Below, piece by piece: positions 22,317 through 36,617 of a stretch of DNA of 64,000 bases. Within the stretch, counting starts at the first letter, position 1. Every line of letters begins with the position of its first letter. A program made the translations under genes and the position numbers. Under the pieces are notes generated by a model that worked only from the letters and a program-made list of their open reading frames with translations, was not told where the DNA came from and searched no databases. Location: positions 1 through 64,000 of the IMG/VR virus record IMGVR_UViG_3300032116_000067; one strand, given 5' to 3'. The stretch comes from a virus.

Positions 22317-23156
22317 TTATAGAGTAATAGGATAAGTCATCAAAGCTGCAGCTACGCTGCTCCCTGCCGCTACAGCAAGCAGGGACCAACCAATCGTAGC
22401 CCAGGGTATTTTTCTAGAGGGTTTCTCTGGCGGCATCGGAGAGTAACCAAACATCTTGGTCTTACGGCCGTTCCAGTTCTTACCCATCTGTTTAAGATCC
22501 AAATCTTCAGAGTCCAGGTGGATAGCAATGACCTCAGGTATCAGGGCCCGGTACTTACGCGGCCACTTCTTAGCATGCAGTACATCGGTCCGGTCTGCTG
22601 CACCATGGGTTTCCGGGTATAGTGTGACACCGGACGTACCTGGGTGCCACATCTGGAAGAACCCGATGGGCTCATAGCCTTCACTCATAAACTCAGCTAT
22701 GCGTACGCCCATGGGAAAGATCGTAGGGTGGATATACACCCAGCCGGTATGAGTAGGTTTGGGTTTACTGATGTACTCGGCCCATGCTTCAAACGTAGGA
22801 CACATCATGCGGTCAAGACCGTAGATCGTGTTCTTGTCCAGACTGATTCGTTCCAGAATTCCCCGGGTGAGCGGGGGCAGATAGATATCAGCATCTATAT
22901 GTACCACCCAGTCTCGTTTAGAGAGATACTGCAATCCGACGTTGATCCCTTTGCCTTTGTTGAAAGCTTCCCCGTTGCTGGTCATCTCGCGGGTGATCAA
23001 ACACTCCACGTTGTAATGATTACATACCGCCTGGGTGTCTTTGTCCTCAGGTGTTGTGACGACGACCATGTGATCAAAGTGCTGCTTGTTGTGAGGTAGT
23101 GTGTGTGCTAAGAAGTCAGCATAGTTCACACATACTACTACGCATTCTATGTACAT
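22317..23156 (-). CDS. GT-A/GT2-like glycosyltransferase with C-terminal TM anchor
   Basis: FNKGKGIN.GL and HIDADI (DxD) motifs; hydrophobic C-terminus. Confidence 0.75.
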   Translation of the reverse strand: MYIECVVVCVNYADFLAHTLPHNKQHFDHMVVVTTPEDKDTQAVCNHYNVECLITREMTSNGEAFNKGKGINVGLQYLSKRDWVVHIDADIYLPPLTRGILERISLDKNTIYGLDRMMCPTFEAWAEYISKPKPTHTGWVYIHPTIFPMGVRIAEFMSEGYEPIGFFQMWHPGTSGVTLYPETHGAADRTDVLHAKKWPRKYRALIPEVIAIHLDSEDLDLKQMGKNWNGRKTKMFGYSPMPPEKPSRKIPWATIGWSLLAVAAGSSVAAALMTYPITL

Positions 23157-23669: not shown

Positions 23670-24026
23670 TTACTTACCGACCATAAAAGGCACTGCATAG
23701 TTTTTATCAATGAGTTCTTGGTTCAGATGCATGTCGAATCCCTCTCCGTAGAAGATATCTACCAGGGGTCGGCCGTACTTATCTAGGTCCCGGGATTTGA
23801 CTACGATCTCCGTACCCGGAGTCAGTAGTTCTGAGACAAACTTCTTGGCAGCCTGGGCTTTGGCTTTGATCTCAGCATCTTTGCTCTTCAGTTCAGGTGT
23901 ATTGACACCGTAGAACCGGCAGGAAGACTTCCAGTAGACAGTAAAGCCAAGGTCGATAGTGACTTTTAAAGTATCACCATCGACAACTCGGTCAACTGTA
24001 GCTTTATAGGTGTACAAATCTTTCAT
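23670..24026 (-). CDS. Staphylococcal-nuclease-like (thermonuclease) protein
   Basis: RVVDGDT, R..GVNTPE and DKYGRPL motifs. Confidence 0.9.
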   Translation of the reverse strand: MKDLYTYKATVDRVVDGDTLKVTIDLGFTVYWKSSCRFYGVNTPELKSKDAEIKAKAQAAKKFVSELLTPGTEIVVKSRDLDKYGRPLVDIFYGEGFDMHLNQELIDKNYAVPFMVGK

Positions 24027-24036
24027 ATTGTAAGGA

Positions 24037-24549
24037 TTATCCGTCGTATGCTAAGTTTTGTCCGCCTCTTACTTGGCTCTGCTGTTCTTCTTCCAAGTCA
24101 CGGAGAGTTCCTTTGAAGCTTTGGCGGATGGCTTCAAACTTTGCAGCTGCATTAACCAGTGCCGTAATATTACCATCACGCCCGTGCTCGATCTCTGTGG
24201 TCTCCATGTATTTGGCGAGCCGGTCGAGCATGCTCTTGATACCGGCATAGGCTCTGTACGTAGGGGTTTCATAGAGCTTCTTACAAAGCTTGATCGCGTT
24301 GTCCACAAGATCATCATCAGTTGAAAAGTCAGCATCAATCTCTCGAAGAATGAGTTCCTCTTTCTCGGCTTCTGGTACATCGAAGAATGGGTTTAAGTCA
24401 GGGTTGGGGCAGGTCATGTAAAAGATATACGCGTAGATCTTACTGCTCTCCTCCCCGTACTCGTCCATGATGTCTTTGAGAGACTTCAACGTGTAGCAGT
24501 GTTCCGTGGGAACCACCTTGCCTCCTTGTATATCAAATAGTCTGATCAT
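24037..24549 (-). CDS. Conserved helical protein (terminase small subunit candidate)
   Basis: 170 aa helical/coiled coil upstream of terL; function inferred from position only. Confidence 0.4.
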   Translation of the reverse strand: MIRLFDIQGGKVVPTEHCYTLKSLKDIMDEYGEESSKIYAYIFYMTCPNPDLNPFFDVPEAEKEELILREIDADFSTDDDLVDNAIKLCKKLYETPTYRAYAGIKSMLDRLAKYMETTEIEHGRDGNITALVNAAAKFEAIRQSFKGTLRDLEEEQQSQVRGGQNLAYDG

Positions 24550-24740
24550 GTTCTACCAAATGTTATGTTCTTCTTAGCTGTAATGTCTTTGTGTCGAAAC
24601 TGCCAGAGCTCTCCGGTCTCATTGATGATCACCGTGTAGATCGTATCGGTTTCATGTCCATAGTCTGTAACGAGCCATATGATTCCGTCTCCTTTTGGTG
24701 TACTCACTTCTACCCTATTCCGCGGCTCGTAAATCGTCAT
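24546..24740 (-). CDS. Hypothetical protein
   Basis: V.TPKG.G..W...DYG motif; ATGA overlaps on both sides. Confidence 0.6.
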   Translation of the reverse strand: MTIYEPRNRVEVSTPKGDGIIWLVTDYGHETDTIYTVIINETGELWQFRHKDITAKKNITFGRT

Positions 24741-25402
24741 AGGATCACCTGGATTTGATCGTCACGTAAACAGAGTTTCTTGTACAGTTCTACATCTTTA
24801 CTCCACTCAGATCCGGTCCACCACTCGAATCCACGGTGGTTAGCTTTGTATACACAGCAGCTCTCGTATCCACCCAGGATGTACACGTACAGAATACCCC
24901 GCATCCGGGCCACGCTACACTCAAAGTACTGGGCCAGATTACCCAGGGATAGTGACGGCGTCTCGTAGTCCCACACAAACTGTGTAGCTACAAGGGCGTC
25001 CGGGTATACATCTACCAGGGAATACCCGATAAGTTTACCCTCATGGTAGTACTTAAGAACCAGGTCCGACTTCAGTTGGTCCCAGGTAATCGTACGGGTA
25101 AACCCCTTAGCCTGGCAGTATTTCTCGTAGATGGTTTCATAGGCCAGATCCATCTTGAAGTTTTCTACTACACACTGGATTTTACTCAGGTTTTTCCTGG
25201 TAGTCTTCGTGGGAGAATGCAGTAGAGCATTGATCCTGACCGATCGAAGATTGTACCAGGCTCCATCCCAGGGTATCCACCCTTGGGCCAGGAGATCTTT
25301 GGGATTGTCACCGGGTTCTATGATCCCCATTGGGTAACCGCAGATAAAATCCTGGTGGCTTACTTTTCCAAATCCCTCTATATGGTCAAAGACGATCTTC
25401 AT
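24737..25402 (-). CDS. ATE1/Bpt-family aminoacyl-tRNA-protein transferase-like protein
   Basis: LLAQGW; YYHEGKLIG...D.YPD.L....F.WDY....LSLG.....E....R..G..YVY.LG.Y..C..YK pattern resembles the ATE_C domain. Confidence 0.7.
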   Translation of the reverse strand: MKIVFDHIEGFGKVSHQDFICGYPMGIIEPGDNPKDLLAQGWIPWDGAWYNLRSVRINALLHSPTKTTRKNLSKIQCVVENFKMDLAYETIYEKYCQAKGFTRTITWDQLKSDLVLKYYHEGKLIGYSLVDVYPDALVATQFVWDYETPSLSLGNLAQYFECSVARMRGILYVYILGGYESCCVYKANHRGFEWWTGSEWSKDVELYKKLCLRDDQIQVIL

Positions 25403-26046
25403 TTGTATTCGTAGTCCAGGATTTTACCCACTAAGTCGGAACGGTGATTGGTCTTCAGCTTGATCCATTTGATCTCCTCGATCTTCTTTGACAGTTCAAT
25501 GACATAGCTCAAACCTGTATACTCGTCCCGGATATCTCTTTGTTCGTTGTCGCCGTTGATGATGATCTTTCCTGTTTTACCGAGACGGGTGAGGATCGCC
25601 AGCATCTGACCCTTAGTGAGGTTCTGTGCTTCTTCTACGACGAGTACATCGTCGATTGTTTTACTACGTACAAACTGCACCGGGAATGCTTGCACTTTGT
25701 CGTCGTTCACCAGACCGTCAATCTTATTACGATCCAGACACTTGTACAGATTCTCCACGAAGGCTTCCATGTATGGATTGAACTTGTCTTTCAAACCTCC
25801 GGGTAGAAATCCCATGGATGCTCCCACTTCTACCATGGCCCGGGTGACGAAGATCTTGTCGATCATCTTCTGAGAGAGAAAATCCAGTGCTGCCTGTGCA
25901 CTGACCAGACTTTTACCGCAACCGGCTCTACCGGTGATTACGACAATCTGGTTTTCCCGAATAAGACGTTTAGCTTCTTTTTGCTCTTCGTTGAGCTCAA
26001 CTCCAAACTTGATCTCGTTCTTCCTGACTCTGTTGGGTTCTTTCAT
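25399..26046 (-). CDS. phoH: PhoH-family ATPase
   Basis: GRAGCGKS, GFLPG, EEAQN, LTRLG..K.I.GD..QRD and HRS motifs. Confidence 0.92.
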   Translation of the reverse strand: MKEPNRVRKNEIKFGVELNEEQKEAKRLIRENQIVVITGRAGCGKSLVSAQAALDFLSQKMIDKIFVTRAMVEVGASMGFLPGGLKDKFNPYMEAFVENLYKCLDRNKIDGLVNDDKVQAFPVQFVRSKTIDDVLVVEEAQNLTKGQMLAILTRLGKTGKIIINGDNEQRDIRDEYTGLSYVIELSKKIEEIKWIKLKTNHRSDLVGKILDYEYK

Positions 26047-26879
26047 CAGTGCGGCTTTATCTTTTTACGGTTGTCTTCTAGCCAGTGCATCAGTGTAATG
26101 ATCTCCTGCTTGAGATACGGCAGTTCATACTGCACGACATCTTTTACGATCGGATCTCCATTACTATCCAGGGCGGTAATCGGGTTACCAAACTTGTCTT
26201 CTCCTACGGTGTCAAACTGGATATGATGAATGATCAGTGATCCGGGTTTCAGCCGGGGGTTGTGCTTCAGGATCATGTACAGGTACATGCTTAGCTGCAG
26301 CGTATAGTGATTGAGGTTACAATCATCCAGGTGACTGACCGGAGCCAGCATCTTCTGAGTAACCCCTTGCCAGTTGGTATAGCCTTCCGTCTTAATCTCT
26401 TTGTTGGTCTTGTAGTCGGTGATGTGCACCTGACCATCTATGACTTCAACCAGATCTGACTGTCCACAGAGTCCGGCCGACTTGAGGTAGACCAGGTGTT
26501 CCGGATAGACTCCGTCAGTGAGTTTCTGTTCCGGAGAATACTTAATTCCTTCGATTTCGATGGGTTTAACCACCGGTACTGTTAATCCCATGCGTTCCAT
26601 GGTATCCAGTTCACAGATGTCTTTCTCCCGGCAGTTGTGATACCAGGTGCCCAGAGACGTGGCGCGGTTAGCTTCTGCTTTCCAGGCCGCCTTGATCTCG
26701 TCCGGTGTCATCCCATACCACTTTGACTTTCTGTTCTTGGCCGACTTAGCCGCTATGGTATCAGCGTCAAAGGGCTGTTTGAAGTTCCCAATAAAGCTGG
26801 TTACGGATATCCAGTCTTTCTCATCTTCTTTTTTTATGCTTGTGTACTTGTGGTCTTGTGGGGTGAATCTTAGTATCAT
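26046..26879 (-). CDS. PD-(D/E)xK exonuclease
   Basis: SVT, GT..H, GQSD, DYKT and Y.LQLS.Y motifs. Confidence 0.85.
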   Translation of the reverse strand: MILRFTPQDHKYTSIKKEDEKDWISVTSFIGNFKQPFDADTIAAKSAKNRKSKWYGMTPDEIKAAWKAEANRATSLGTWYHNCREKDICELDTMERMGLTVPVVKPIEIEGIKYSPEQKLTDGVYPEHLVYLKSAGLCGQSDLVEVIDGQVHITDYKTNKEIKTEGYTNWQGVTQKMLAPVSHLDDCNLNHYTLQLSMYLYMILKHNPRLKPGSLIIHHIQFDTVGEDKFGNPITALDSNGDPIVKDVVQYELPYLKQEIITLMHWLEDNRKKIKPH

Positions 26880-27258
26880 GGGTAAATCCGATTGAGTTTT
26901 TCACAGGGTTGGCCGATATAGCGTCTAACACTTCCTCGGGAGTGTGAAACGTAGCGTAGAATCGACCGGAGTATTTATCAAAGACCACCGAACGTTTGCG
27001 GCTGATCTGGTTCTTGCTGTTGACGTATTCTTCTATGGAGCTGATAGACTCCTTGACAAACCACTTCTTGACTTTGATCTGCTTAACAAGAACTTCTTTG
27101 CGTTCCGGAAACAGCTCACCGCCTCCCAGCTTTTGGTAGATGGTCTTTGTCTTGTACACAGAATGCACGACATTTAAGGATACGGCATCGTGTGGGTTCA
27201 CAGTCCAAGCTTTTGGTTCAACTGATCTTCCTCTTGTTGTGTAAGTACTGCTTCCCAC
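26821..27258 (-). CDS. Hypothetical protein (true start probably the GTG near 27201)
   Basis: Collinear ORF. Confidence 0.55.
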   Translation of the reverse strand: MGSSTYTTRGRSVEPKAWTVNPHDAVSLNVVHSVYKTKTIYQKLGGGELFPERKEVLVKQIKVKKWFVKESISSIEEYVNSKNQISRKRSVVFDKYSGRFYATFHTPEEVLDAISANPVKNSIGFTHDTKIHPTRPQVHKHKKRR

Positions 27259-27536
27259 TTGGCCCCTTTAGGATGGGGACAGTGACTGGACAGACTTCTT
27301 GTTTTAAACTTCAGAGAGCATCCGCAACCACCTTTCTCCTGGTTACAACAGGGTCCGGTCTTGGTAACCATGCATCCGTTGTCATCTTCAGTGTAGAGAT
27401 CGCAGGATGAGCATGTCTGCAGTCTTTCTGCAGCAATCTCCTCTACGTCTTCTTTCTTAAAAATGGAGTTAGTTACTCCTTCTATGATCTGACCTTTAGC
27501 TTTCCAGATCTTGATCATGTTCTTTTTTAGACTCAT
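27198..27536 (-). CDS. Cys-rich Zn-binding protein
   Basis: R...C..C ... CGC.L..K.RS....CP..KW motif. Confidence 0.7.
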   Translation of the reverse strand: MSLKKNMIKIWKAKGQIIEGVTNSIFKKEDVEEIAAERLQTCSSCDLYTEDDNGCMVTKTGPCCNQEKGGCGCSLKFKTRSLSSHCPHPKGAKWEAVLTQQEEDQLNQKLGL

Positions 27537-27900: not shown

Positions 27901-28252
27901 CGCAGAGGAATTTATAGTCCAGCAATATGTTACCCGACGCACTGACCTTTAGATCCGGATGGATATAGATCTTCTTCTTGTTCTTGCCTTCCTTTTTGAT
28001 CAAGTTCTTCTTCTCTGCTTTAGTCAGGCAGTTACGCACCGACTGGGTAGAAGAAAAGATCTTCTTATCGTAGGCTTTGTTACAGAAACTCGTGAGTTCC
28101 TGGTCTCCTTCGATCGCCAGTAGAGTCAGGCAGTTTAGATCCGCCTCACTGATCGGTATGTCGAACAGGTAGCAGTGCGTAAGGATCTGGTACTTGACAA
28201 CCTGCCAAGTACTCATCCGCACTCGTTTCTCTACCTGGTTTACTATGGCCAT
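27881..28252 (-). CDS. Winged-HTH-like protein
   Basis: S.QSVRNCL.K..KK.LI.K helix-wing pattern. Confidence 0.55.
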   Translation of the reverse strand: MAIVNQVEKRVRMSTWQVVKYQILTHCYLFDIPISEADLNCLTLLAIEGDQELTSFCNKAYDKKIFSSTQSVRNCLTKAEKKNLIKKEGKNKKKIYIHPDLKVSASGNILLDYKFLCVASPES

Positions 28253-28683
28253 TATATGTTGAGTTTAAAGCTGATGTAGTCCTCTCCGGTTCTACACCAA
28301 TTATTATGTACTAAGATTTGCTCGGCCCCAAGCATTCGAAAGATGTTCCAGGAAGGTCCTTTGCGAGCCTCACCAATCATGTAGTAGTATTCAGCTTCTT
28401 TGGCCCAGTCCAGAGCAGCGTCTACGATCTGGGTGCCGATACCCTGGTTTCTATGACTGGGTAAAACCGTGAATCCTTCTACGTGGACTACGTTGTCAGA
28501 ATTCCATGTCAGGATGATTTCAGCTATCAGGTCTTTTTTATCCCTGAACCAGATACCCTGGCACTCTTTGTTGTGCTCTAACATGAAAAGCTTGTATGTC
28601 TCGTCCCAGCGTAGTTCTTTGGGATGCTCTTGCTCAAATACCAGGGTTTCCCGGTAATCTCTCAGCTTGTAGACCGGCGTCAT
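28252..28683 (-). CDS. GNAT acetyltransferase
   Basis: V.PSHRNQGIG acetyl-CoA-binding motif A. Confidence 0.85.
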   Translation of the reverse strand: MTPVYKLRDYRETLVFEQEHPKELRWDETYKLFMLEHNKECQGIWFRDKKDLIAEIILTWNSDNVVHVEGFTVLPSHRNQGIGTQIVDAALDWAKEAEYYYMIGEARKGPSWNIFRMLGAEQILVHNNWCRTGEDYISFKLNI

Positions 28684-30182: not shown

Positions 30183-30728
30183 AAAGTAGTGTAACTCGTT
30201 GATAATCAGGTGTGTATGTGATTGGTAGGAACACGTACACACCTTTTTCTCTTTCTCTCCTACCTCTTAATCCGCTCTATTTGACGCGGATAAGATCGCT
30301 ATATATTCTTTACGGTTGATAAACCGTGACAAGCCTGTGGGGCTACGATGTTGTTCTCTCATATAAGGGTGAGAGTATCAAGCAGAGGTTAATTCCTTTC
30401 TCTGTAATGACACGTTAGTGCAGACTTTAAAACCAGGCAGTCTACTTATTGTACGGTGTTGGGTACGTATGATGAGAGACTTTAAAGTGTGGTAACACAC
30501 ACAGTCCAACTTTGTAGACATAAAACCACTTGTCTACTTTCTCCTAGGTTTGTGGTAAACCTAAAAACATTAGGGTTCTGGTAACACTTGTTTACCGACC
30601 CGGCCCTATCAGTTGACATGGAGATGTTAGCTATGCACTAGGCGGTGTGTAGTTCTGATATGGGTTTAAAACTAAAAACAAGGGGGCTAGCCACCCCCGA
30701 AGTCCTCACCAAAAAAAAAACTATTGTT

Positions 30729-35868: not shown

Positions 35869-35955
35869 GGTCAGGTGGTGGAGCTGGTTTAACACAAGGT
35901 AAGACACCTTTTACAGGTGGCTCACCTATCACAGGTTCGAATCCTGTCCTGACTA
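35869..35955 (+). ncRNA. tRNA-like RNA 1 (extended anticodon arm)
   Basis: Acceptor ggtcagg/cctgact, D-arm gtg..cac, T-arm acagg-TTCGAAT-cctgt. Confidence 0.7.
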
Positions 35956-36492: not shown

Positions 36493-36617
36493 AGTCAGGT
36501 GGCGAAATTGGTAGACGCGAGTGGTGTGTTAAATGTGGGAATAGACATAATCCCTAACCCTATAAAAAGGGCTGACCGCTTGTCTCTTAGTTGCAGGTTC
36601 GATTCCTGTCCTGACTG
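36493..36617 (+). ncRNA. tRNA-like RNA 2 (anticodon loop replaced by two hairpins)
   Basis: agtcagg/cctgact; Leu-type D-arm tggcgaaattggtagacgc; T-arm gcagg-TTCGATT-cctgt. Confidence 0.7.

Follow-up and report, generated by a model that had tools for sequence, protein, structure and literature searches.

The window analysed here, a stretch of 64,000 nucleotides, comprises positions 1 to 64,000 of the IMG/VR virus record IMGVR_UViG_3300032116_000067, which is 100,264 bases long in full, has a completeness rating of 77% and derives from an uncultured tailed phage of about 100 kb. On the minus strand, an open reading frame running from ATG to TGA (24737–25402) encodes a 221-aa protein that we assign to the aminoacyl-tRNA-protein transferases ATE1 and Bpt on the basis of a Pfam ATE_C match, ATE1 sequences in the Protein Data Bank (PDB), an AlphaFold2 model and the ratio of nonsynonymous to synonymous substitution rates (dN/dS). 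The transferase gene is tightly enclosed by its neighbours. Its ATG overlaps the stop codon of a gene for a PhoH-like ATPase (25399–26046, minus strand; Pfam PhoH, 167.5 bits) in an ATGA at 25399–25402, and its own stop codon overlaps, in an ATGA at 24737–24740, the start of orf64 (24546–24740, minus strand), a gene for a conserved 64-aa protein recognised from synteny, dN/dS and a five-strand model as a putative small β-barrel.

Relationship to ATE1 and Bpt

The translation of the transferase gene carries the readable motifs DLLAQGW, KYYHEGKLIG, VDVYPDAL, FVWDY, SLSLG, YVYILGGY and CCVYK. Pfam ATE_C (PF04377) matches it with 40.7 bits at a cut-off of 25 (E = 4.4e-10), far above chance; the ATE_C pattern and the LL.QGW motif that a sequence-only reading of this DNA had pointed out in the 221-aa protein are confirmed. 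The matching stretch spans residues 97–175 (24878–25114, minus strand), the core of the GNAT-type catalytic domain, and ATE_C scores above its cut-off in 47/47 aligned clade members. Among PDB sequences, phmmer finds yeast ATE1 (E = 3e-7) and K. lactis Ate1 (klAte1; E = 2e-5), and hhalign pairs phage residues 52–202 with Aeromonas Bpt at 93.7% probability (E = 1.9e-7). The canonical Bpt used for comparison is that of the aat-bpt-infA-clpA locus of Aeromonas caviae (L113, NZ_AP026896.1); this 4.94-Mb entry is almost unannotated and labelled a plasmid, and is probably a mislabelled chromosome. Purifying selection on the phage transferase is strong, with a dN/dS of 0.07 against an 86%-identical relative (L018).

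The AlphaFold2 model, built on 47 relatives (predicted local distance difference test score, pLDDT, 85.7; predicted template modelling score, pTM, 0.84), shows the N-terminal lobe packed against the GNAT domain in the manner of the solved ATE1 structures. Foldseek places human, yeast and K. lactis ATE1 at the top of its matches (E 1.9e-9 to 1e-7), followed by MprF, FemX and L/F-transferase (E 2e-6 to 4e-5). VIA-align superimposes 211 residues of the model on ATE1 with Z scores of 13.5–14.9, model residues 1–216 covering klAte1 11–333 and human ATE1 12–451 (Z 13.8–14.9); the alignment with MprF and FemX involves about 145 residues of the GNAT part only (Z 11–13). The homology to ATE1 and Bpt put forward from the letters alone has thus withstood a structural check, the best matches being ATE1 and not an unrelated GNAT. 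As judged from sequence and predicted structure, the phage protein is a true homologue of the ATE1/Bpt fold.

Residues central to the family are retained. W144, Y185 and K186 align with W260, Y303 and K304 of klAte1, and residue tallies over 218 full-length relatives (120 near and 98 far) show K186 kept in 217 and Tyr or Trp at position 185 in 214; in the window, the Tyr185-Lys186 pair is encoded by TAC AAA at 24845–24850 (minus strand). The basic stretch K66, R69, K70 and K74 corresponds to a predicted helix (66–72), aligns with the basic stretch that follows the Cys loop of Bpt and lies at the place of the tRNA-binding helix of ATE1. The protein is very probably an active tRNA-dependent transferase, a prediction drawn from its sequence and model.

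An altered N-terminal lobe

The N-terminal lobe (residues 1–75; 25178–25402, minus strand) takes the place of ATE_N, whose profile does not recognise it. Searched at an E-value limit of 1, the transferase shows no match to Pfam ATE_N (PF04376), nor do 47 clade members at a limit of 0.01; the first 80 residues alone retrieve no ATE1 chain from the PDB; and the NCBIfam equivalogs for Bpt and arginyltransferase (the PRK01305 set) give at best 36.1 bits, below their cut-offs of 170–358. In the structural alignment, nonetheless, the model matches ATE1 from residue 11 of the latter. F5, H7, G10–K13, G41, W42, W45, W49, R53 and R56 are invariant in the lobe across the clade.

When Aeromonas Bpt is joined to the clade alignment by MAFFT --add, its LTAGFRRS-GNDIYR, 8-residue Cys loop and CQSLRI face LLAQGWIPW-DGAWYN-LRSVRI in the phage protein. 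Two departures stand out. The 8-residue loop of Bpt with its CxxC is deleted, the last Cys of Bpt being Leu52 here; the seven cysteines of the phage protein (21, 77, 96, 162, 182, 183 and 209) include no CxxC, in agreement with the absence of an N-terminal Cys cluster noted earlier. The second concerns GFRRSGxxxY of Bpt and ATE1, whose counterpart, from this alignment and the residue tallies, is GWIPWDGAWY (residues 41–50; 25253–25282, minus strand): both arginines are replaced, by Ile43-Pro44. Position 43 is Ile in 119 of the 120 near relatives and mostly Leu or Ile in the far ones, with no Arg among the tallied residues.

In klAte1, Arg80 lines a positively charged pocket for acidic N-termini, the R80E variant is inactive on Asp/Glu peptides, and Tyr87 follows seven residues later (PMC9351520). 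Because this 7-residue spacing matches that of the motif, we infer that Arg80 is the first Arg of GFRRSG, and the residue by which ATE1 and Bpt pick acidic N-termini would consequently appear to be lost from the phage enzyme. With both arginines of the recognition motif turned into Ile-Pro, the acceptor is expected to be something other than the canonical Asp/Glu N-terminus, and tagging of such N-termini in the manner of Bpt, as the sequence-only reading had suggested, is not what the site points to.

The donor pocket

The donor pocket of klAte1 consists of Ser255, Ser273, Glu277 and Tyr289, and that of the Leu-specific Bpt of Vibrio vulnificus of Ala168, Ala185, Gln189 and Leu201 (PMC9351520). 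Glu277 is placed in the pocket that receives the side chain of the Arg carried by Arg-tRNA; its exchange for Ala or Lys nearly or fully abolishes activity, and E277D behaves like the wild type (PMC9351520). The corresponding residues of the phage transferase are Ala139, Ala157, Glu161 and Val173. Glu161, encoded by GAG at 24920–24922 (minus strand) and placed by the alignments and residue tallies, aligns with Glu277 of klAte1 and with the Gln of Bpt; Glu occupies this position in 120/120 near and 76/98 far relatives (196/218), and the more distant clade members show Ser/Ser/Glu in the pocket, as in ATE1. An Arg-type donor, to which we assign slightly less than an even chance from the sequence comparison, is favoured over Leu because the acidic residue of ATE1 is kept where Bpt has Gln. 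A Leu donor as in Bpt is not supported by this pocket, in which Ala139, Ala157 and Val173 suit the uncharged, hydrophobic type of Bpt and Glu161 departs from it.

A dedicated donor tRNA was considered and rejected. The tRNAs near the transferase in relatives vary (Leu-CAG, Arg-TCT, Asn or none), and similar long tRNA-like elements are present in related phages that have the enzyme and in others that lack it. The window itself holds two such elements (35869–35955 and 36493–36617, both on the plus strand) with normal acceptor, D and T arms and expanded anticodon regions, in which 27 and 64 nt stand at the 13 central positions of the model (the anticodon stem-loop). ARAGORN calls the element at 35869–35955 a tRNA-Val(gac) of 88 nt. 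The D arm of the second resembles the Leu type.

A virus-restricted clade

Close relatives of the transferase are encoded on 149 IMG/VR contigs, and a search with more distant clade members gives 294 contigs, partly overlapping the 149 and including contigs of 160–221 kb. The relatives fall into 236 clusters at 90% identity, those listed being 221–248 aa long, and some bear the automatic Joint Genome Institute (JGI) name 'arginyl-tRNA--protein-N-Asp/Glu arginylyltransferase'. At 50% identity there are 186 clusters among 1.84 billion representatives, and GFRR is found in none of them. Deposited phage genomes (INPHARED; tblastn and megablast) contain no match to the transferase, and PHROGs has no family for it or for orf64. 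A pattern-limited search of cellular genomes, one per species for 185,579 species, returned a single match, which lies on a 117.8-kb phage-like contig within a metagenome-assembled genome (MAG) of Chitinophagaceae. The clade is restricted to viruses, spans hundreds of uncultured contigs and is cysteine-free in the sense that the Cys cluster is absent. Descent from a gene of a Bacteroidota host was rejected, hhalign giving 8% probability to the cellular ATE_C protein of Chitinophagaceae against the 93.7% for Aeromonas Bpt. We found no paper on the clade or on any viral enzyme of this kind.

Pairing with orf64

The most constant feature of the surroundings is orf64, which lies directly downstream of the transferase gene, usually overlapping it, in 81/81 related loci. 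It is likewise adjacent in 55/55 assessable further loci with a transferase identity of at least 37.7%, including contigs of 206–221 kb, and was not found in 24 loci with a transferase identity of 36% or less; PurA-like and NrdB-like genes are among those inspected downstream in these loci. The outer flanks of the pair come in at least five versions. In 35–38 of the 81 loci, the transferase has the exonuclease, orf170 and TerL among its neighbours. PhoH is adjacent in 10/81 of these loci and in 7/80 orf64 loci, and was rejected as a functional partner; translational coupling to PhoH, proposed from the sequence, stands for this genome in the form of the 4-base overlap and does not extend to a partnership across the relatives.

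The orf64 protein is conserved at 68–93% identity across relatives with a dN/dS of 0.03. Its five-strand model (pLDDT 65.7) suggests a small barrel with weak matches to SH3-, KOW- and Tudor-like folds (best Foldseek E 0.16; best VIA Z 5.7); Pfam and PHROG have no family for it, and the Atlas holds it in viral hypothetical clusters only. Encoded on 369 viral contigs, orf64 has no transferase upstream in 39 of the best 80 loci, and the transferase is altogether absent from seven complete genomes that contain orf64. Between loci with and without the enzyme, the orf64 sequence differs consistently at one column only. Constant adjacency and this one-way dependence can be read as a probable coupling, in which orf64 would act as a docking subunit or as the acceptor, and on such gene-order evidence we lean slightly towards a functional link between the two proteins. 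In phages without the transferase (L127–L190, around position 1500), orf64 is embedded in a series of small proteins that are very rich in Lys, many of them starting with MATIKK or MATVKK; none of these occurs in the window.

Candidate functions and their rivals

The closest characterised families make N-degrons, and the phage enzyme could do so as well, adding Leu or Arg to N-terminal Asp or Glu of host or phage proteins for degradation by ClpS/ClpAP. A gene for a short ClpS-like protein is present in five transferase-bearing relatives, the phage-like contig of the MAG and four others, three of which have it at a distance of about 10.5 kb from the transferase gene, and 0/11 related phages without the transferase have one; the Chitinophagaceae MAG, moreover, has its own ClpS and ATE_C protein. 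Yet ClpS is missing from the 100 kb of this record and from four transferase-bearing relatives rated 99–100% complete, and 15 of the 16 larger phage contigs with this type of ClpS, two of them complete, have no transferase. As such, ClpS and the transferase are independent accessory genes of the phage group, and ClpS lends weak support to a degradation role because of this independence; the ClpS/ClpAP link drawn in the sequence-only reading was rejected on these counts. In the bacterial pathway an N-terminal Arg is a secondary destabilising residue only and needs Aat, which was not found in the candidate host MAG, an incomplete genome. The replacement of the GFRRSG arginine pair, with Ile or Leu at position 43 clade-wide, speaks against this function too, given the inactivity of klAte1 R80E (PMC9351520). 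An N-degron as the outcome of the reaction is therefore doubtful, and a Bpt-like N-degron maker as the full explanation unlikely. The ClpS-like proteins of these phages (L016:1489–1743, L017, L098–L100) are 79–86 aa long, have no long N-terminal extension and keep the ND motif, and the phage type of ClpS occurs on 183 IMG/VR contigs. At the position of His66 of E. coli ClpS, they have either His or Asp. They might block or redirect the host ClpA or ClpC rather than deliver substrates.

The loss of the canonical residue for recognising protein N-termini also fits an acceptor that is not a protein. FemX, MprF and the streptothricin peptide synthases carry out tRNA-dependent aminoacylation of non-protein acceptors, and the phage enzyme might similarly modify a cell-wall precursor, lipid, small molecule or nucleotide; FemX and MprF belong to the same fold superfamily, with Z scores of 11–13 on the GNAT part, and a glycosyltransferase-like gene, with sub-threshold Pfam matches only, lies 1.6 kb downstream. 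Full-length alignment including the N-lobe is obtained with ATE1 only, however, there is no match to a Fem, MprF or DUF2156 family, and among the neighbours no cell-wall, lipid or nucleotide-modification gene is conserved, the glycosyltransferase being adjacent in 1/81 loci, so that we regard this explanation as improbable. A similarly low chance attaches to a self-sufficient pair with orf64 as the acceptor, in which an optional enzyme would aminoacylate a core phage β-barrel protein and so alter its activity. The one-way dependence of the pair (orf64 follows every transferase in the related loci and also occurs alone), the overlap of the genes and the higher conservation of orf64 than of the enzyme would suit such an arrangement; the single consistent column of difference and the orf64 N-terminus, which has Ile, Thr or Met after the initial Met and is not an obvious processed acceptor, would not. 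Finally, a non-catalytic protein that binds tRNA or aminoacyl-tRNA, for example as a decoy or shield against host defences that target tRNA, would fit with the retained basic helix of tRNA-binding type and with the presence, in this group of phages, of tRNAs and unusual tRNA-like elements. Such a binder is very improbable: binding alone would by no means require Trp144, the pocket Glu and the Tyr-Lys pair to be as conserved as they are, and relatives that lack the transferase have the tRNA-like elements just as well.

The explanation that we favour, and to which in its entirety we give about an even chance, is that of a minimal active aminoacyl-tRNA-dependent transferase from a cysteine-free, exclusively viral clade of the ATE1/Bpt lineage, acting on a non-canonical acceptor and made together with orf64. 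From a charged host tRNA the transferase would accept a basic amino acid, Arg being the likeliest, and would join it to a protein at an amino group other than that of the canonical Asp/Glu N-terminus. It would be produced together with the overlapping downstream orf64, which may serve as its targeting or docking subunit or may itself be the acceptor, and the modified host or phage protein may be affected in stability or activity. More tentatively, and as something that we consider possible rather than probable, the two genes may constitute a viral module for protein aminoacylation, probably arginylation, in which the enzyme is aimed by or acts on the SH3-like orf64 protein and modifies host or phage targets at sites other than acidic N-termini.

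Several points weigh against the transferase acting in this way. Of the four pocket positions, the near subgroup agrees with Bpt exactly at two (Ala/Ala) and nearly at a third, which is likewise hydrophobic, and a hydrophobic donor is possible because of this threefold resemblance. Equivalence within the N-lobe is a matter of motif-level alignment and spacing, and the invariant K13 or R53 could occupy the place of Arg80. Lastly, orf64 does not need the transferase, as it is equally conserved in complete phages without it, and the adjacency of the two genes could reflect inherited gene order or a shared cassette.

Genomic surroundings

The minus-strand arm encodes the tail fibre, major head protein, portal and large terminase, and the plus-strand arm of the window carries replication genes. 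The terminase, portal and capsid genes lie 2.7 kb downstream of the transferase on the same strand, and from this gene order a place in the late operon is plausible. A promoter scan with a sigma-70 model gave results at chance level, and the Bacteroidota –7 box TAnnTTTG, searched as a clue to the host, showed no enrichment (51 sites versus 46 expected).

On the minus strand near the transferase lie genes for a staphylococcal-nuclease-like protein (23670–24026), a PD-(D/E)XK exonuclease (26046–26879) and a GNAT acetyltransferase (28252–28683), together with the weak GT2-like glycosyltransferase mentioned above (22317–23156); among these nuclease, GNAT and GT2-like neighbours, the exonuclease is the sole frequent one. 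A Cys-rich 112-aa protein with several CxxC-like pairs (27198–27536, minus strand) is encoded upstream of the exonuclease, in conserved synteny, in 30/81 related loci and has been assigned to no family. The divergent region that separates the two gene arms holds a full-length match to the Hatchet ribozyme (30306–30438, plus strand; Rfam RF02678, scoring 78.1 bits where the gathering cut-off is 51).

Comparison with known systems

To our knowledge, the only known instances of tRNA-dependent protein aminoacylation are cellular and are due to ATE1 in eukaryotes and to Bpt and Aat in bacteria. The phage clade is large, with contigs of 100–220 kb, strongly conserved, and altered at exactly the residues of acceptor choice. 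If the transferase is active, phages would be shown to rewrite protein ends or side chains with the charged tRNA of their host, and a compact, metal-free enzyme of 221 aa would become available for studying donor and acceptor choice in the family. Should the two-gene module prove true, it would be the first virus-encoded tRNA-dependent system for protein tagging and would bring a new acceptor rule. The strict pairing of transferase and orf64 offers a concrete, testable handle.

With FemX/FemABX, MprF and Aat the phage protein shares an aminoacyl-tRNA-using domain of GNAT type, and differs from them in the limited extent of alignment (about 145 residues), in the absence of a sequence-family match and in an N-lobe that is ATE1-like rather than Fem- or MprF-like. 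Bpt is closer in size (about 235 aa), in domain order, in the basic stretch after the RI motif and in the donor pocket, where both have Ala/Ala at two positions and a hydrophobic fourth residue. In contrast, the Cys cluster and GFRRSG of Bpt are replaced in the phage protein by an 8-residue deletion and GWIPW, the Gln of the Bpt pocket is Glu in the phage enzyme, the Bpt equivalogs score the phage protein far below their cut-offs, and the phage gene is not beside aat, clpA or clpS. ATE1 (K. lactis 7WFX/7WG1, S. cerevisiae 7TIF/8E3S, human 8TZV) resembles the phage protein in its ATE_C sequence, in the counterparts of klAte1 W260, Y303, K304 and E277 and, according to the predicted model, in a two-lobe fold along the whole 221 residues. 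The viral enzyme nevertheless is less than half the size of its eukaryotic relative and has neither the C-terminal domain nor the inserts; it shows no ATE_N match and no four-Cys metal site, carries Ile at the counterpart of Arg80 and, in the near subgroup, replaces Ser255, Ser273 and Tyr289 of klAte1 with Ala, Ala and Val.

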